Assembly (NCBI GenBank): GCA_963664815.2
Contig: CAXXHB010000003.1
Coordinates: 3,680,001-3,744,000 of the forward strand
Origin: Spirochaetota bacterium
Lineage (GTDB): Bacteria; Spirochaetota; UBA4802; UBA5550
Length of the DNA: 64,000 bases
Direction of reading: 5' to 3'
In this document: positions 7,147 to 21,254 of the stretch, piece after piece
Layout of the letters: each line of letters starts with the position of its first letter
How positions within the stretch are numbered: position 1 is the first letter of the stretch
The notes under the pieces: model-generated
Told to the model about the DNA's origin: nothing
Database searches by the model: none
The model's input: only the letters and a program-made list of their open reading frames with translations
Program-made: the position numbers and the translations under genes

Positions 7147-7479
7147 TTAATTTCTGATTAATCTTTTTAAGATTATATCTTCGAAATTTCTTCTAGAGTC
7201 AATCATTGAAAGAATATATACTTTTTGTTCTTCTATTCTATAAACTATTCGCCATGGAGTTATAATCAGTTCTCGATAATTACTAATATTATGAAAATCA
7301 AGCTCAGGAACAGTTCTTCCTCGTTCAGGAAAATTTTCTAATTTGATTGTTTGCTTTTTGATTTTTTCAAATATTTCTGCGGCTGTATTCAGACTATCTA
7401 ATGAAATATATTCAATTATTTCAATAAGATCATCTTGTGCAATTTTTGTCCAATATACTGTATATTTTTTTGATGTCAT
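7147..7479 (-). CDS. RelE/ParE family toxin, copy 1
   Basis: YTVYWT..AQDDL..I..YI, LENFPERGR, YRELI..WRIVYRI motifs; directly downstream of the antitoxin. Confidence 0.9.
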   Translation of the reverse strand: MTSKKYTVYWTKIAQDDLIEIIEYISLDSLNTAAEIFEKIKKQTIKLENFPERGRTVPELDFHNISNYRELIITPWRIVYRIEEQKVYILSMIDSRRNFEDIILKRLIRN

Positions 7480-7483
7480 ATTC

Positions 7484-7762
7484 TTATCTTTTTTTTAGAA
7501 TTTTATCTTCGATTGCAGAAAAGAATGAATTCTGCTCTGTGAATTTTCCATTTTTTACATCGTTTTCTCCCATGGAAATTAGTTTTAAAATCCCTATCGC
7601 GTTTTGCATTGAATCATAACTTTCTGTATCCATTAATACAGCTTTTGCTTCCCCATTTTGAGTTATGATAATTGGACGATGAGTTTCGTTAACTTGATCA
7701 AGCATGTTTGCAGCATTTGCTTTTACGAAAGAAATGGGGCGTATATCTTGTTTGGTATTCAT
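7484..7762 (-). CDS. Phd/YefM family antitoxin, copy 1
   Basis: IRPIS.VK.NAA.ML.QV.ET.RPIIITQNGEAKAVL motif. Confidence 0.9.
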   Translation of the reverse strand: MNTKQDIRPISFVKANAANMLDQVNETHRPIIITQNGEAKAVLMDTESYDSMQNAIGILKLISMGENDVKNGKFTEQNSFFSAIEDKILKKR

Positions 7763-7861
7763 TTTTTTATCCTCTATGGTGTTTCTATTGATCTAAATAT
7801 GGTACTAAATTAAGTTTTAAAGGTCAAGAATAATTTTCTAAAACGACGGGGGCAGACTTTC

Positions 7862-7924
7862 GCATAACGTTAAGAAGAGTATCTTAATCAATCTTCTCCG
7901 ATTGAGATACTCTTCAAGTTGGCC
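7862..7924 (-). repeat. attC-like site type A, copy 1
   Basis: Minus strand GGCCAAC-ttgaagagtatctcaatc...gattgattaagatactcttc-ttaac-GTTATGC; three copies in the window. Confidence 0.7.
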
Positions 7925-9451: not shown

Positions 9452-9957
9452 GACAGAACCGCCTGAGCAACAGCCCGATATAATATTAATGGATTTTAAA
9501 TTACCGGATTTATAATTGCAAGAATAATTCGTATGTAGAAATTTGAATAAATAAACAATTGCATCTTTATAACAACCAATATATCTGCTTTTAAAACACT
9601 GTTAAACGGCATTCCCAAGAATAAATTATCATTATTTCTCAGTTATCAGAATAAAAGTATCCCTTCATGGTCTTTTTATCGTTACCATAATCATAAGATA
9701 TTAATATGCAGATAATAATCTACAACCGCTCTGGTTCGCCGGAGGTGAACGATACCTCACCGGTTCAGGAATCTCTTTTACAATAAGCCTTCCGGTTTTG
9801 CATGTAGGGCAGCATGAAAGATTTTTACCTGTGACGCGCAGATAGATTTCACTCCATGTCTGCGGTATACTTTCATTATTCTTTTGAATTTCGTAAAACT
9901 CGCGGCATGCCTCAACAGCCTTCTTTTTATTCCGGTGAGAGAGAATTCCGAAGTACC
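9452..9957 (-). mobile_element. 3' remnant of IS91-like element A (transposase C-terminus plus noncoding end)
   Basis: Near-identical to ~15141-15640; translation YFGILSHRNKKK...CCPTCKTG...YRSPP. Confidence 0.85.
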
Positions 9958-11790: not shown

Positions 11791-12212
11791 GTCTGGTAGG
11801 TCAGGGAGTTTGCACCCCCTTCCCCCCATAAGAACCGTACGTGAAAGTTTTACCACAGGCACTTCCTACGGTCGCCCTTCATACGACTCAAGCCGCCTAA
11901 AGCTGATTATACAACCAGCCGCTGTTATCTGTTTGTATTCCCATTTTTCTATAGTAGAAATAATCAGAATCTTCTTTTAAAAATGGGTTCCTGTCAAGAC
12001 TTATCATTCTGTGCCGTACAATTTTAATGTGTCCTGCAGTAATAAGAATCTCCTCATCAGAGCAGAAAGTCCAATCCCTGTTTCCTATGCGTTTCCAGTA
12101 CCGGTTTTTAAGCCATAAAGAATTTTTCATCGGGTGTCTGAATCTACCCCATCTCCATAGAGCCTGAAAAAGAACAGCATCGGGATTTTTAAAGGCTTCT
12201 TTTAAAACCATT
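11791..12212 (-). mobile_element. Group II intron 3' remnant, copy 2 (includes maturase tail ORF 11897..12211)
   Basis: LWRWGRFRHP.K...WLKNRYW...GNRDWTF...IVRH...NPF maturase tail; DV gagtcgtatgaaggg..aaactttcacgtacggttc; ends ...gacctaccagac. Confidence 0.85.
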
Positions 12213-12553: not shown

Positions 12554-12886
12554 TTAATTTCTGATTAATCTTTTTAAGATTATATCTTCGAAATTTCTTC
12601 TAGAGTCAATCATTGAAAGAATATATACTTTTTGTTCTTCTATTCTATAAACTATTCGCCATGGAGTTATAATCAGTTCTCGATAATTACTAATATTATG
12701 AAAATCAAGCTCAGGAACAGTTCTTCCTCGTTCAGGAAAATTTTCTAATTTGATTGTTTGCTTTTTGATTTTTTCAAATATTTCTGCGGCTGTATTCAGA
12801 CTATCTAATGAAATATATTCAATTATTTCAATAAGATCATCTTGTGCAATTTTTGTCCAATATACTGTATATTTTTTTGATGTCAT
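12554..12886 (-). CDS. RelE/ParE family toxin, copy 2
   Basis: Protein identical to 7147..7479. Confidence 0.9.
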   Translation of the reverse strand: MTSKKYTVYWTKIAQDDLIEIIEYISLDSLNTAAEIFEKIKKQTIKLENFPERGRTVPELDFHNISNYRELIITPWRIVYRIEEQKVYILSMIDSRRNFEDIILKRLIRN

Positions 12887-12890
12887 ATTC

Positions 12891-13169
12891 TTATCTTTTT
12901 TTTAGAATTTTATCTTCGATTGCAGAAAAGAATGAATTCTGCTCTGTGAATTTTCCATTTTTTACATCGTTTTCTCCCATGGAAATTAGTTTTAAAATCC
13001 CTATCGCGTTTTGCATTGAATCATAACTTTCTGTATCCATTAATACAGCTTTTGCTTCCCCATTTTGAGTTATGATAATTGGACGATGAGTTTCGTTAAC
13101 TTGATCAAGCATGTTTGCAGCATTTGCTTTTACGAAAGAAATGGGGCGTATATCTTGTTTGGTATTCAT
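12891..13169 (-). CDS. Phd/YefM family antitoxin, copy 2
   Basis: Protein identical to 7484..7762. Confidence 0.9.
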   Translation of the reverse strand: MNTKQDIRPISFVKANAANMLDQVNETHRPIIITQNGEAKAVLMDTESYDSMQNAIGILKLISMGENDVKNGKFTEQNSFFSAIEDKILKKR

Positions 13170-13871: not shown

Positions 13872-14315
13872 TTAGAATGTATTATTGTGATTATTGATAT
13901 TATTAATAGTATCTTTTATAAAATTCAATTTTCTTTTTTCAACAATAGATTTTGGTATATCTAGACCTTTATTAATATCCAATGATACTCGTGTAATAAT
14001 ATTATTAATATTAGTTGTTACTTTCATTTTAATTGATTTAATATTGTGTCGTTTGAAATCTAATATTTGTATTGCAACGAGTATTCCATTAGTTGATTCA
14101 ATAAAACAAATATATTCAGTTTTGCGAACAACAGTTTTTTTAATATTATATTCGAATAATATTTCAAATATATCCTTATTTTCATCATAACCATACTTTT
14201 GAATCTTGGGAATGTTATCTAAAGATGGCAGTACATTATAATTACATCCATTTATTTTTTCATTAGAATAATTATTGAAATATGAATTATACAAATTATT
14301 AATTTCTTTATTCAT
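13872..14315 (-). CDS. Hypothetical protein (cassette gene 2)
   Basis: 147-aa ORF overlapping the upstream stop by 4 nt; ends just before attC. Confidence 0.6.
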   Translation of the reverse strand: MNKEINNLYNSYFNNYSNEKINGCNYNVLPSLDNIPKIQKYGYDENKDIFEILFEYNIKKTVVRKTEYICFIESTNGILVAIQILDFKRHNIKSIKMKVTTNINNIITRVSLDINKGLDIPKSIVEKRKLNFIKDTINNINNHNNTF

Positions 14316-15049
14316 ATATTACCTCTTTCAAATAAAAACGATATTGAATTTATCATTTCTTCAATTTTTCTAGACTTTTTAACATCGAGCGACATATTAA
14401 TTTCATTATCAATTACTACAACACCCCATGTCATAGATTTTGTAAATGATTTTAAAGGAAGACAAAAAAACCAAGATGATTTTGAATTTACCTTGCGAGC
14501 AATTTTTTTATTTAAAGACAATTCTTTTTCGCATTGATTGAAATAAATGTCTGGGTTTTCTGGATCATAATCGTTAATGCTTTTTTGGATAATGTTTTGT
14601 GTTGCAAAACACACTCCAGCACAACCTTCTCCATGTTTAAATTTTATTTTTGTATTTATAATTGGAATTCGCGTTTGATATCTGGCTATTTGTTTTAGAT
14701 ACGCTTTTGAACTGTTCATTTTGTAGGCTTTAAAAATTGTAACCCTTAAATGATGTTTATGCTCATCTTTTAAATCAACAGTCATTTTATCAAATATTAA
14801 GTGAGCCATATTTTTGAACATTGATTTGTCTTTTGTTAGTTTATTATAAACAATGTTTAAAACATGTACAATAATATAAATAATAAAAAGTACTAAAAAT
14901 ATTTTTACAGAATTTTTCGAAATCGTTTCATAAGATCCAGGTTTGAGGTAGTCATCAAAAATAAGTATTTTGCTTTCCGAAATGCAATTGTAAAAATAGC
15001 CAATAATTGCCACTATAATAATTTTTATAATTTCAAATACTATTTTCAT
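14312..15049 (-). CDS. Two-TM protein with putative GAF-like domain (cassette gene 1)
   Basis: Two N-terminal hydrophobic helices; LRVTIF, F..GEGCAG.CF and FFCLPL...WGVVVID GAF-like strands. Confidence 0.6.
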   Translation of the reverse strand: MKIVFEIIKIIIVAIIGYFYNCISESKILIFDDYLKPGSYETISKNSVKIFLVLFIIYIIVHVLNIVYNKLTKDKSMFKNMAHLIFDKMTVDLKDEHKHHLRVTIFKAYKMNSSKAYLKQIARYQTRIPIINTKIKFKHGEGCAGVCFATQNIIQKSINDYDPENPDIYFNQCEKELSLNKKIARKVNSKSSWFFCLPLKSFTKSMTWGVVVIDNEINMSLDVKKSRKIEEMINSISFLFERGNI

Positions 15050-15080: not shown

Positions 15081-15143
15081 GTCTAACGTTAAGAAGAGTA
15101 TCTTAATCAATCTTCTCCGATTGAGATACTCTTCAAGTTGGAC
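15081..15143 (-). repeat. attC-like site type A, copy 3 (uninterrupted, at the end of the recombinase-transposase unit)
   Basis: Minus strand GTCCAAC...GTTAGAC with the same internal hairpin as 7862-7924. Confidence 0.75.
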
Positions 15144-15385
15144 AGAACCGCCTGAGCAACAGCCCGACACAATATTAATGGATTTTAAATTACCGGATTT
15201 ATAATTGCAAGAATAATTCGTATGTAGAAATTTGAATAAATAAACAATTGCATCTTTATAACAACCAATATATCTGCTTTTAAATTATTGTTAAACGATA
15301 CTTTCCGGAATAAATTATCATTATTTCTCAGTTATCAGAATGAAAGTATCCCTTCATGGTTTTTTATAGTTCCATAATCATAGTA

Positions 15386-16585
15386 TTAATATATAGATAA
15401 TAATCTACAACTGCTCTGGTTCGCCGGAGGTGAACGGTACCGTACCGGTTCAAGAATCTCTTTTACAATAAGCCTTCCGGTTTTGCATGCAGGGCAGCAT
15501 GAAAGATTTTTACCTGTAATACGCAGATAGATTTCACTCCATGTCTGCGGTATACTTTCATTCTTCTTTTGAATTTCGTAAAACTCGCGACATGCCTCAA
15601 CAGCCTTCTTTTTGTTTCTGTGTGATAGAATTCCAAAGTATCTGATGCGGACAAACCTTCTCGGTACAACATGCATTATGAAGCGGCGAATAAAAGACTC
15701 TGCCGGGAGTTCCATGAGCTTTTCCCTGTTCCCGTCAGCGTAATCCCTGTATCTGAATCTTATTATATCATCTTTAACAGAAACTATCCGGTGATTGCTG
15801 ATGGCTATGCGATGAGTATACCTCGCAAGATATTCAATTACACTCTCTTTGCCCTGGAAGGATTCTTTGAGATATACAACCCACTCCGCGGCGAAGAGTG
15901 AATCAATCATTGTCTGAAAATTTATGGCATCAGTGACATGCGTACCTTTAAGATATAATTTTTCTGTTCTATAAAGTTCCTTCAATCCCTGCAGAAAGAG
16001 GCTTCTGAACCGCAGCTTCAGAACCTGCACAGGTACAAAATAGTTATTCGGAGCATGAATCCATCTCTGCTTTTTCTCCGAATAACCTCCGCCCGGAACC
16101 ACACAATGAAGATGGGGATGTAAATTAATCTTCTGCCCCCATGTATGTAGGATGGAAAAGAATCCTATATCAGCGCCGAAGTATTTTTCATCACCGCTGA
16201 CAGAGAGTAGTGTCATTCTGCATACATCAAACATAAGGTCGTAGATAACTCTTTTGTTTCTGATAACAACCGGGTTAAGCATATCTGGAAGTGTGAATAC
16301 AACATGAAAGTAAGTGAACGGGAGAACTTCATTTTTTCTTTCCATAATCCACTTCTCTTTTTTCATCGACTGGCACTGTGGACAATGCCTGTTTCTGCAT
16401 GAGTTGTAGAGAATCACTTTATGGCCGCAGATGCTGCATTCCTCAACTCTTCCGCCGAGGGCTTCTGTCCTGCAGATCTCAATTGAACGCATCACCTTTC
16501 TTTCATGCAAAGAGACTTCGGGATGTTTCAGAAGATAAGACTCATCGTAATTCCGGAATATTTCATTAACGGTTGGCTGATTCAT
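15386..16585 (-). CDS. IS91 family (HUH/Y2) rolling-circle transposase
   Basis: Zn-binding C..C...YNSCRNRHCPQCQ, YFHVVFTLP, LHTWG...HPHLH (HUH) and YLARY (Y2) motifs; start chosen at MNQPT. Confidence 0.93.
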   Translation of the reverse strand: MNQPTVNEIFRNYDESYLLKHPEVSLHERKVMRSIEICRTEALGGRVEECSICGHKVILYNSCRNRHCPQCQSMKKEKWIMERKNEVLPFTYFHVVFTLPDMLNPVVIRNKRVIYDLMFDVCRMTLLSVSGDEKYFGADIGFFSILHTWGQKINLHPHLHCVVPGGGYSEKKQRWIHAPNNYFVPVQVLKLRFRSLFLQGLKELYRTEKLYLKGTHVTDAINFQTMIDSLFAAEWVVYLKESFQGKESVIEYLARYTHRIAISNHRIVSVKDDIIRFRYRDYADGNREKLMELPAESFIRRFIMHVVPRRFVRIRYFGILSHRNKKKAVEACREFYEIQKKNESIPQTWSEIYLRITGKNLSCCPACKTGRLIVKEILEPVRYRSPPANQSSCRLLSIY

Positions 16586-17429
16586 TTTTAAATCTGTCTG
16601 CATAGACATCAAGAGGACTTCGGGCCACGGTCTTCTCTTCATTCAGATGCACATAAACCAGAGTCGTAGTCAGATGTCTGTGTCCCAGAAACTTCTGAAG
16701 TTGAAACACTCCGCTCCCTGTCTCTATCATATGTGTCGCAAAGGAGTGACGCAGTGTATGAATACCGCACTGTTTTGTTATACCGGCTCTCTTCTTCGCG
16801 CGATGATACGCATGCTGTACTGCCCTGATTGACATCTGTTCACCTGGGTATCTTCCGCAAAACAGCCAGTTGTCCGGCCTGTAGGTTTTCCAGTATTGCT
16901 CAAGCTGGATTAAACATATTTCTGAAAGCAGGGTATACCTGTCCCTGCCCCCTTTGGCATCCCGTACTTTAAGACGCATTGAATCCCGTGAGATATCGTC
17001 TACCTTCAGATTTACAAGTTCACCCACTCGGAGACCTGAGGAATACGTGAGCATCAGTATTGTTTTATGTTTCAGATTATCAGCGCTGTGAATAATCCGA
17101 AACACCTCTTCTACCGTAAATACTTCCGGAAGTTTTCTTTTCTTTTTCTGAATGGGAATGTTTTCAACTTCAACGTCTCTGCCGATTGTCTGGATAAAAA
17201 AATAGCATATTGCGCTTCTTGCCTGACGGAATGATGATTCTGATAGTTTCCGGTCTTTGATTAAGTAATACAGGTAGTCTTTTATGGTTTCTTTTGTGAT
17301 CTCCTCCGGCGGTTCCTTGCAGTATTCAAGAAAACTGCTCAAGCTCCGGTAATAGGTGATCTGTGTCCTCAGGCTGTATCCGCGAAGGGCAAGGTCTCTT
17401 TTGTAGCTTTGTAAAATCTGTTCTGACAT
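16566..17429 (-). CDS. Tyrosine recombinase (SAM_4-type N-terminus), not an IntI
   Basis: LRGYSLRT N-terminus; GLRVGE, KG, HTLRHSFATH, LGH and Y catalytic motifs; lacks the IntI-specific insertion between KG..DR and WLF. Confidence 0.92.
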   Translation of the reverse strand: MSEQILQSYKRDLALRGYSLRTQITYYRSLSSFLEYCKEPPEEITKETIKDYLYYLIKDRKLSESSFRQARSAICYFFIQTIGRDVEVENIPIQKKKRKLPEVFTVEEVFRIIHSADNLKHKTILMLTYSSGLRVGELVNLKVDDISRDSMRLKVRDAKGGRDRYTLLSEICLIQLEQYWKTYRPDNWLFCGRYPGEQMSIRAVQHAYHRAKKRAGITKQCGIHTLRHSFATHMIETGSGVFQLQKFLGHRHLTTTLVYVHLNEEKTVARSPLDVYADRFKNESANR

Positions 17430-17533
17430 GAAGATTTCCTCCGTTAATTTTGGTTAACGGAAGTTTATCATGGATTGTAATAAAAGTGAAATCTTTCATA
17501 TGGGATAGAAAGCCGCCGCCTTCAGGCGGTTTT

Positions 17534-17634
17534 GTTCAACGCCTTGCTTACACGACGTCGCGGCGTCTTTTTGCCGCGATGTGGCGAAGCCCAAGCGAGG
17601 TACTCCGAGCGCAGCGTTGTAAGCTTTGTTGTGC
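17534..17634 (-). repeat. attC-like site type C, copy 2
   Basis: Minus strand GCACAAC-aaa-gcttaca...tgtaagc-aaggc-GTTGAAC; clearly homologous to 13762-13861. Confidence 0.85.
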
Positions 17635-19335: not shown

Positions 19336-19420
19336 AATTATCAATTGCGCACAACTTGTACTATCCGAATAATCTTTCGCATAACACAGGAAAAATCCGG
19401 AAAAATGCGAAAGAAGTTAC
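19336..19420 (-). other. First core site of the array (GTTGTGC) and candidate attI-like primary site
   Basis: aattatcaattgcgcacaac (19336-19355) is a 19/20 inverted match to 17628-17647; no attC hairpin beyond it. Confidence 0.45.
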
Positions 19421-20114
19421 GTACAGTAACCCCTATATCTCCAGTGGACTCTTAATATTCCCGGATTTCCCCGTACATACATGTGTATAAATCATAATTG
19501 TATCAGGACTTTACCGTCCTGATAGTTCCTGTATTCTTCGTTACTCTGTTCAGGCAGTTGTGTAGTAAATTTATCCCTTGATGAGTTATCTTTAACCGTT
19601 TTCCATTCCGTCATTTACAACATTCCGTTGAAACCAGTCCGCACAAATATCCCCCGTTGCTACTCCCCTTCTCCTGATCTTTTAATAAACGGTTTCCATG
19701 ATGATCCCTGCAGGATGGGGCTGTATGCATTTAATTTATTCACTCATTAAACAGCAGTTATTTCAATACTTTTTTTCAAATATTCAAATAAATATCCGGC
19801 TTGTTTCAAGATTGGCATTTGCAGCCCTCAGGAAACCTTGAGTGTGTTTTATTAAGGGGCTTCGCCCCTTATACCCTGTAAAAAAGTTGTCTCTTTTTTA
19901 TAAAGAACGTTAATTACTTTGTTGAATTGGCTGCTTTGCAATAAAAACATATGATGTGTTATATGCACAAATTGTGCCGAAAACTGCTGTACACTGCAGT
20001 GATTATACCCAATCTGTCGCCATGTATATGCCGTTTATCCGCCACGAATCCGCCATCTATCCGGCGAAGTAACATCAGAATTTTTTTGCTTTTTCAGTAA
20101 ATTTTTTAAATTCC

Positions 20115-20708: not shown

Positions 20709-21254
20709 TTACAGCTTTAAAAGCGCGTTTTTCTCTGTCGGTAACGGAGTTGAAACGGTATTGAAACGGTTTTTAACAGGGTCTGCATACTGCTTAAGTC
20801 CTGTTTTAACAGCTTCACCTCTGTCTTTTACTGCATTAATATTACTATGTCCATCTGCTGATCTGCTGTTTTCTGAACAGTAAAAGGTATATTCTGTAAT
20901 ATCACCAGAGGCAGATACACCCACTGCATCCCCTGTACCGCCGCTTCCCGATGGAGTAACAGGTGAACCTGGAGCAATGCCGCGAAGGTATTCCGACATA
21001 AAAAGATTATACCCTGACTTTTTCTTCCTCTTTGCCCTGTTTCTGTAGAGAGCTTTCTCCTCTTCCGGAAGAACCTGCCAGGCCTTTACGCCGCCGCCGA
21101 AATTACCCCTGCACTTCACCTGCGGTTCAGTACGCGGATTGGAGGGAATTGTGCGTGCTTTAATGTAGATTTTACCATAGCGTCTGTAAAACACAAGATC
21201 GCCCATACCTCCATGCGCAGTTCTTAAATAAGGATGAAGCTTTACTTTTGCCAT
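20709..21254 (-). CDS. Small basic hypothetical protein (DUF6266-like N-terminus, HMG-box-like motifs)
   Basis: G.MGDLVFY...GK.YIK...P.NPRTE.Q...R..F N-terminus; aggag RBS; C-terminal half is low-complexity. Confidence 0.6.
   Translation of the reverse strand: MAKVKLHPYLRTAHGGMGDLVFYRRYGKIYIKARTIPSNPRTEPQVKCRGNFGGGVKAWQVLPEEEKALYRNRAKRKKKSGYNLFMSEYLRGIAPGSPVTPSGSGGTGDAVGVSASGDITEYTFYCSENSRSADGHSNINAVKDRGEAVKTGLKQYADPVKNRFNTVSTPLPTEKNALLKL

Follow-up and report, generated by a model that had tools for sequence, protein, structure and literature searches.

We analysed a 64-kb stretch of contig CAXXHB010000003.1 (assembly GCA_963664815.2; this whole stretch is called the window, and coordinates prefixed w are positions in it). 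Within an array of integron-like cassettes it holds a two-gene mobile element that encodes a tyrosine recombinase (YR) and an IS91-family transposase. The order on the gene strand is left repeat, YR gene, IS91 transposase gene, right repeat and hairpin. Crossovers are written N|TT or G|TT, the exchange lying between the marked letters. The unit and its parts are as follows:

w15087-17539, minus strand: complete mobile unit of 2,453 bp, defined by sequence and by homology to locus L052
w17534-17640, minus strand: attC that closes the preceding cassette, from the family of about 100 nt; the left boundary of the unit is provided by the R' box G|TTGAAC of this site
w17522-17540, minus strand: left inverted repeat GTTGAACAAAACCGCCTGA, recognised in the sequence and conserved in relatives
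w16566-17429, minus strand: YR gene, 287 aa (PF00589, 7e-37; PF13495)
w15386-16642, minus strand: IS91-family Y2-HUH transposase gene, 418 aa (NF033538, 429.5 bits, cut-off 125)
w15168-15188, minus strand: subterminal motif AAATCCATTAATATTG, found by eye; most relatives have AATCCCCATAG; the motif precedes the right repeat by 15-40 nt
w15137-15155, minus strand: right inverted repeat, TCAGGCGGTTCTGTCCAAC on the gene strand; its GTCCAAC serves as the R'' box of the hairpin site
w15081-15143, minus strand: 63-nt attC-like hairpin closing the unit (R'' box GTCCAAC, 2 nt, stem-loop, TTAAC, G|TTAGAC)

The unit is bounded by G|TT at both sides (G|TTGAAC at 17540..17534 and AACG|TTAGAC at 15091..15081, the latter crossover being placed between 15087 and 15086), i.e., it has the core sites crossing at G|TT and the 3' attC by which an integron cassette is recognised. 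On the plus strand, the repeats GTTGGACAGAACCGCCTGA (15137-15155) and TCAGGCGGTTTTGTTCAAC (17522-17540) are complementary at 17 of 19 positions, for which we calculated a chance expectation of about 0.03 in 3.4 kb. The left repeat overlaps a small palindrome, CCGCC-TGAA-GGCGG (plus-strand 17516-17529): after its G|TTGAAC start the gene strand runs on as AAAACCGCC-TGAA-GGCGG, and the bottom strand of this end reads palindrome-N4-GTTC, like a terIS. Folded as DNA, the 63-nt hairpin reaches -11.4 kcal/mol (z -3.6), a stability equalled by none of 200 shuffled sequences. An earlier sequence-only reading of this DNA had described the cassette-type boundaries, the 17/19 repeat and the 63-nt hairpin; all are present after small corrections of the coordinates, and homology to L052 stops at the G|TT. 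The gene content does not follow the usual cassette pattern of one promoterless cargo open reading frame (ORF) served by IntI in trans, because the unit consists of two ORFs, both for mobility enzymes, and of non-coding ends of 245 nt and about 110 nt. The conserved subterminal motif in the latter part of the unit is a candidate recognition or nick site of the HUH enzyme.

The YR gene immediately precedes the transposase gene in the same orientation, and the two overlap by 77 nt. The YR has intact catalytic motifs (R134, K159, H224-x-x-R227, H250 and Y259, assigned by motif) and a SAM-like N-terminal domain besides PF00589, and it scores below every NCBIfam cut-off. Against the integron-integrase profile TIGR02249 it reaches 164.6 bits (cut-off 265) and matches only profile positions 1-179 and 237-313, leaving positions 180-236 unmatched; when it is aligned with VchIntIA (2a3v), 27 of its residues stand opposite 69. 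Therefore, the IntI-specific insertion is absent from this YR, in agreement with the sequence-only reading, which had also noted an IntI-like N-terminus. Smyshlyaev et al. (bioRxiv 10.1101/542381) place the IS91-borne YRs as the closest homologues of IntI, in an IntI-related group that lacks the insertion. The gene context is not that of an IntI: the gene stands inside the cassette-like unit and not beside an attI. The transposase shows the Y2_Tnp domain (PF04986, 5e-59) and the zinc-binding N-terminal domain (PF14319, 1e-30), and its HPHLH motif (H175/H177/H179) and Y271/Y275 are invariant in all eight aligned sequences (the window and seven relatives). With this Y2-HUH transposase the module belongs to IS91, and it is an intact member of a catalogued two-gene subgroup (IS91 transposase plus YR) that includes ISAzo26.

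A terminus common to the two-gene IS91 elements

We searched 401 genomes of the phylum for relatives of the transposase (match at E<=1e-60), which returned 17 genomes, and scanned metagenomes, where 80 of 588 relatives were kept for inspection of the locus; the relatives found share 35-83% transposase identity. Of 18 Bacteroidota genome loci, 14 have a YR gene immediately before the transposase gene, while two of the remaining contigs end inside the transposase and two loci (L063 and L065) are without a YR in the 505 and about 1,500 nt upstream. The metagenome loci gave a similar picture (YR upstream in 72 of 80; too little upstream sequence in six; no YR in two), and the pair is also annotated in plasmids of Clostridium estertheticum and C. 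tagluense and, as ISAzo26, in Aromatoleum. ISWz1 and others also belong to these IS91 elements with an upstream YR.

The ends are as constant as the gene pair. All members examined begin with N|TTGNAC-N4-CCGC-loop-GCGG. They finish with a CCATAG-type motif and GCGG-N4-GTNCAA, after which come an imperfect hairpin (about 35-110 nt), a spacer of 5-7 nt and N|TT. Among 94 sequences we obtained 54 candidate end pairs, dropped eight without the core motif as spurious and kept 46. These 46 relatives have complementary repeats, and the hairpin directly follows the right repeat in 43 of them, the Clostridium plasmids and ISAzo26 included (L151 is without a hairpin, and two contigs stop 19 and 29 nt past the repeat). 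The outer repeat positions co-vary, the combinations TTGAAC/GTTCAA, TTGGAC/GTCCAA, TTGTAC/GTACAA and TTGCAC/GTGCAA all occurring along with GAAGAAC/GTTCTTC and ATAGGAC/GTCCTAT. In 25 of 46 elements the outer 5-mers agree exactly, whereas 2,000 shuffles gave 4.2 such cases on average and never more than 12. ISAzo26 may serve as an example: it has the same gene pair in the same order (about 40% YR identity), a left end TTGGACTAAACCGC-loop-GCGG and a right end GCGGTTCAGTCCAAC followed by a hairpin and A|TT, and differs in that the window copy sits in an integron-like array.

The hairpin is carried along with the element. L052, a contig of 'Bacteroidetes bacterium ADurb.Bin145' and the one locus returned by a scan of species genomes for close transposase relatives, matches the window at 82% identity between w17541 and w15084, and the two sequences part directly behind AACG|TTA; since this homology reaches past the hairpin, the hairpin belongs to the unit. 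Two copies in one genome (L055 and L067 in G070) have the hairpin in common and diverge after G|TTA, and the sequences of L177 and L182 part after ACGTTT; mapping of breakpoints among metagenome copies offered three informative pairs. The attC-like end is therefore a family-wide terminus of these elements, which occurs also in hosts without integrons, and the idea that this array had specially packaged its machinery as a cassette is not supported, because the same terminus is found throughout the family, including the Clostridium plasmids and ISAzo26. In Cury et al. 2016 (PMC4889954), Firmicutes had no complete integrons, and alpha-proteobacteria had no complete integrons, In0 or CALIN.

Joined ends, insertion targets and a possible mode of movement

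Joining the right end to the left end, as happens in a circle or between tandem copies, brings the repeats into pairing around the hairpin. The junction then folds like an attC, and its crossover lies 1-3 nt within the outer stem. As DNA, each strand of the window junction gives a single long, imperfect hairpin (-26.0 and -28.4 kcal/mol, z -6.6 and -8.0), and L153 provides a natural head-to-tail junction, in which the right repeat pairs with the left repeat of the next copy (-51.3 kcal/mol, z -9.5); tandem or hairpin-element-hairpin arrangements are also present in L133, L167 and L191. The geometry resembles attC in having an inner stem and an outer stem (the R boxes) that is complete only after circularisation, and this outer stem, at 14-19 bp, is longer than in textbook attC. 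Likeness to attC was judged by eye and by folding; in the hairpin of the window, the R boxes pair by eye with spacers of 2 versus 5 nt, and extrahelical bases are not clear. Generic scans of window and genome for AAC...GTT plus a hairpin were noisy (terminators, coding sequence) and served as pointers only, and an Rfam scan of the window returned a group II intron as the sole match.

Insertions sit at N|TT beside hairpins or within palindromes. The left junction retains a variable target spacer and the right junction the constant spacer of the element itself: six Clostridium insertions in different contexts read GTCGTGAAA plus 6-7 variable nt, then the element, then TTTCACGAC, and the ISAzo26 site reads (TTC)CATAA-GGGTCG | element | TTATG(CAA), with a like pattern in L058 and L140. 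The flanks are complementary at seven or more of eight positions in 11 of 27 elements (against 8.5% of cross pairs) and at all eight in three of 27 (against 0.4% of cross pairs). The target thus has two inverted arms with about 6 nt of spacer between them, which is what a single-strand exchange at one spacer edge would leave. Classical two-strand exchange by a YR needs identity of the spacers; since the spacers at the two junctions are unlike, it cannot, by established YR chemistry, yield this layout.

The same site also stands behind other genes. In two C. tagluense plasmids, the stop codon of a GNAT gene is immediately followed by a solo module of right repeat plus hairpin, without IS91 genes (L087, NZ_CP077607.1 21696-22260, and L088, NZ_CP086156.1), i.e., a cassette-like cargo unit in a Firmicute. 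The source genome has 14 copies of the 63-nt site type, some of which close decayed IS91 copies, either immediately or with a 125-nt insert in between, and others follow unrelated, apparently cargo sequence (1378104, 1381534, 1400319); a G|TTAT-type cassette start follows all but one or two of these sites.

These features suggest that the family moves like a self-propelled gene cassette, and we hold with moderate confidence that its YR exchanges a single strand at the folded attC-like junction while the HUH enzyme supplies the single-stranded circles. In such a cycle, rolling-circle displacement by the HUH transposase, a process shown for IS91 itself, would yield the single-stranded circle. 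The YR would exchange one strand, the bottom one, of the folded junction with a target that is a hairpin or resembles dif, and replication would resolve the product, as it does for integron cassettes and CTX phage. The preferred targets in the source genome would be the attC sites of integron-like arrays, hence the cassette-like position. The conserved architecture fits hairpin-site recombination. CTX-type phages use Xer recombinases in this manner, with a folded single-stranded site and exchange of one strand at dif. The chemistry we propose would be the same (exchange of one strand at a folded single strand that imitates a core site with two arms, followed by resolution through replication) and the targets are alike in having two inverted arms and a spacer of about 6 nt, although here the recombinase is encoded by the element and the single-stranded DNA would come from its HUH enzyme, not from phage replication. 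Circular intermediates are reported for ISwz1 in PMC11322121.

Several observations weigh against such an exchange. The spacers are asymmetric (0-3 versus 5-7 nt) and extrahelical bases are not evident, unlike in textbook attC; 16 of 27 elements are without flank palindromy; and although all 20 hairpins tested (that of the window and 19 of 23 metagenome hairpins of at most 115 nt) fold at z -3.0 to -8.4, they were chosen by our own folding filter, which inflates these scores. The domain that this YR lacks is said, in PMC4792948, to be needed for the single-strand pathway of integron integrases. By sequence the YR is nearer to archaeal XerA (4a8e, 6.6e-34) than to IntI4 (2.3e-26), and a recombinase tree recovers the IntI, array-head YR and IS91-YR groups without fixing their deep order, so that we make no claim on the order of descent among IntI, the array-head enzyme YR357 described below and the IS91 YRs. 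Canonical IS91 also has subterminal palindromes at both ends, the left end of our element is terIS-like and its right repeat contains GTTC; a purely HUH-driven mechanism would be compatible with these end features, and catalysis by the YR is what we infer. Five sequencing runs contain the stretch, all in the form of assembled contigs, and in the contigs of the four examined, which cannot show rare forms, there was no circle junction, empty site or excision product. They do contain the element joined to its left attC (a 2,011-nt contig over 15598-17608), and a single joint of 15281 to 16982 (one run, side 28) was below the reliability threshold.

A smaller but real chance attaches to ordinary IS91 rolling-circle transposition, in which the HUH enzyme alone would cut and join oriIS and terIS and the hairpin would be the subterminal palindrome of oriIS; the YR would in that case be an accessory that resolves dimers or cointegrates or aids termination like Orf121 in IS91. 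The element shares with IS91, IS801 and IS1294 the transposase family (the gene is intact, with invariant HUH and Y2 residues), the subterminal palindromes, a GTTC-type tetranucleotide at the terIS-like end and the lack of target duplication, and single-stranded circles are plausible for it. PMC13181058 describes transposition of IS91 through bottom-strand single-stranded circles, which are the substrate, an overlapping upstream accessory ORF in IS91, two imperfect palindromes at oriIS and one at terIS beside GTTC in IS91/IS801, and a terIS of palindrome plus GTTC in IS801/IS1294; the palindrome-N4-GTTC of the left end (bottom strand) and the GTTC/CTTG in and beside the right repeat match this description. 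The same source defines IS91 by functionally distinct oriIS and terIS and subterminal palindromes, without terminal inverted repeats (PMC13181058), whereas our element, with palindromes at both ends and a terIS-like left end, has in addition long, co-varying inverted repeats of 14-19 bp. Its outer boundary is N|TT beyond a large hairpin instead of GTTC/CTTG abutting oriIS (GTTC occurs only inside the right repeat), its targets are split palindromes with heterologous spacers, solo right-end modules stand behind cargo genes, and the second enzyme, the YR, is kept in 72 of 80 loci; these points speak against the rolling-circle route alone.

We regard it as unlikely that the pair is a passive cassette, captured once with an attC and moved only by an integrase of the array (YR357, or an IntI in the unassembled 4% of the genome), because the same architecture occurs in hosts without integrons. 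The exact G|TT boundaries, a hairpin of the same type as the sites that end cargo in this genome, the array's own head integrase type with an attI-like site and a canonical IntI in five of 61 related genomes are all in its favour, but the same ends recur in Clostridium plasmids, ISAzo26 and dozens of metagenome contigs, the hairpins diverge along with the body of the element, and complete integrons were absent from Firmicutes, as were complete integrons, In0 and CALIN from alpha-proteobacteria, in PMC4889954. Integron cassettes and the element do have much in common, i.e., G|TT boundaries, a 3' imperfect hairpin with outer R boxes completed only in the circular form, the absence of target duplication, occurrence in arrays, tandem insertion and a YR of the IntI-related group. 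Unlike the cassettes, the element brings its own recombinase and HUH transposase, its YR is without the IntI-specific domain, its R stem is 14-19 bp long with asymmetric spacers and no evident extrahelical bases, and it occurs in lineages without integrons. Very improbable, in our view, is an insertion sequence that homes to attC, with the hairpin being host target DNA. IS1111-attC elements and group IIC-attC introns are mobile elements of this sort (see PMC3001079), and like them the element resides in attC arrays: all nine transposase matches of the genome lie within arrays, and that of the window also contains an IS110-family element and group II intron fragments. The enzymes differ, however, the insertion mimics a cassette, and the hairpin belongs to the element: it is kept with differing downstream flanks in different genomes, it forms solo modules together with the right repeat, and hairpin families follow the phylogeny of the element.

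A wider version of the single-strand account is possible, yet we advance it tentatively and with more doubt than belief: the two-gene elements may be autonomous 'cassette transposons', whose HUH-made bottom-strand circle folds like attC and is integrated by their own YR at N|TT into hairpins, dif-like palindromes and attC. In this version, and at the same low confidence, the YR might also mobilise in trans cargo genes bearing the same end module, the family might be a living relative or a possible source of integron recombination, and the YR357-headed arrays of Bacteroidota might form a second type of integron, so far unrecognised, with which the family exchanges sites.

The subgroup of elements is catalogued and the kinship of its YR to IntI is in print. 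Our literature searches, which did not extend to transposon catalogues and supplements, found no paper on the attC-like end or on the role of the YR in two-gene IS91 elements, and no account of cassette-like insertion, palindromic targets or modules of cargo plus site. The attC-like junction together with palindromic targets that have unlike spacers provides a concrete, testable mechanism for this YR. If true, it would connect rolling-circle transposons with integrons and give a natural source of single-stranded DNA for hairpin-site recombination, and hairpin sites paired with IntI-related YRs that lack the IntI domain would be a candidate evolutionary intermediate for integron recombination. 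A relative, ISwz1, sits in multidrug-resistance islands (PMC11322121), and the mode of movement therefore matters for tracking such islands.

The surrounding array and its head recombinase

The first 20 kb of the window is an array of minus-strand cassettes whose attC sites fall into three or more families (63, about 98 and about 100 nt); the array also holds a duplicated toxin-antitoxin cassette, an IS110-family element, IS3 fragments, group II intron fragments and a decayed IS91 copy. Further members of the about 100-nt family lie at w13762-13861 and, in no fewer than 40 copies, within the array of a same-genus genome (G006). Further features that bear on the element are:

w9452-9955, minus strand: decayed 3' fragment of a second copy of the element, 92% identical to 15141-15640
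w13267-13329, minus strand: another copy of the 63-nt hairpin (58 nt identical), in a duplicated segment also present at 7860-7922
w19342-19705, minus strand: array head, with an attI-like site and a YR357-type gene remnant (tblastn, array-head alignment)

The sequence-only reading had called the array IntI-less. This stands for canonical IntI, which was found neither in the window nor in the 96%-complete genome (best TIGR02249 match 126 bits), nor in seven other genomes of the genus, five of 61 relatives having one; the canonical IntI loci of these relatives, compared for attC geometry, showed no clear arrays in the sequence pieces at hand. In functional terms the array does not lack an integrase: at its head stand a mostly deleted YR357-type gene and an attI-like site. 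YR357 is an intact 357-aa YR encoded elsewhere in the genome (G000, C3:1972136-1973209). It has about 85 additional residues at its N-terminus, lacks the IntI insertion and is 36.5% identical to the YR of the element. Homologues with 48-60% identity head attC arrays, co-oriented with the cassettes, in all five same-genus genomes searched, one of these arrays (G006:C1:4328808-4428000) extending over about 100 kb with at least 40 attC copies. A conserved region of 80-130 nt 3' of the YR357 stop codon ends in AG|TTA(T/G)..., where homology between arrays stops (six loci aligned), and is an attI-like site; among 23 loci across the phylum, it is present by eye in 19 of the 21 that could be assessed, and full-length YR357 homologues with this downstream site are spread over the phylum (the YR357-type loci are L106-L110 and L200-L225). 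In the window, the attI-like site (19342-19435) ends AAG|TTGTGCGC, and the remnant behind it (19436-19705) is decayed, with only its last 35 codons (19436-19540) readable. Compared with the intact copy, about 840 bp of the head YR gene are deleted (the region is colinear with C3:1972066-1974758), and two other arrays have the same deleted head at 91-93% identity. Arrays headed by YR357 would be called CALIN by the criterion of Cury et al.; they form a non-canonical integron-like platform, and Bacteroidota arrays that current tools call integrase-less (CALIN) may be complete platforms of this kind. A plasmid of Chondrinema litorale (L079, NZ_CP111070.1, 15 kb) carries a 386-aa integrase related to YR357, followed by a GNAT gene and a group II intron, and may be a mobile version of it.

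The window holds the only full copy of the element in the genome, and all nine IS91-transposase matches lie within about 5 kb of attC-family repeats (DNA-only fragments at C2:302k, C3:1048k and C3:1103k were left out of this check). Several decayed 3' fragments (w9452-10420; G000:C3:2543697, 3587397 and 1964273) begin at the same base as the full copy and, from the position corresponding to w15640, continue as another sequence that they have in common (CCAACAGGGCAAAC...). In most of them, a 125-nt segment with two hairpins interrupts the right repeat between GTC and CAAC. In the window, this 125-nt segment and an IS110-family insertion part the fragment at 9452-9955 from its hairpin at 7860-7922; the IS110-family transposase gene (w8069-9154, minus strand) is located inside the segment, between the IS91 remnant and the 63-nt hairpin, and a similar copy ends near C3:2543600. 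The IS110-family element may be an attC- or hairpin-targeting insertion sequence of the IS1111 type.

A 3' fragment of a group II intron occurs twice (w6368-6960 and w11791-12400, minus strand), each copy adjoining a 98-nt attC; Rfam RF00029 matches at 11791-11891, and a maturase C-terminal ORF lies at 11897-12211. Adjacency to attC is expected for attC-associated group IIC introns. The array contains a segmental duplication (w6368-8014 and w11814-13373), and the RelE/ParE-like plus Phd/YefM-like toxin-antitoxin cassette is accordingly found at 7147-7762 and 12554-13169 with identical proteins. The first cassette of the array (w17653-19344, minus strand) encodes a 563-aa protein with Schlafen AlbA_2 and HATPase_c_4 domains, and the next cassette, at 13872-15049, has two ORFs, one weakly matching a nuclease domain; both are possible defence-type cargo. 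A sequence of about 750 bp (w20544-21300, with a 181-aa ORF at 20709-21254, minus strand) has more than 30 copies genome-wide at 72-95% identity. It is preceded by three tandem 146-nt repeats (w20072-20560), and both also flank other array heads.

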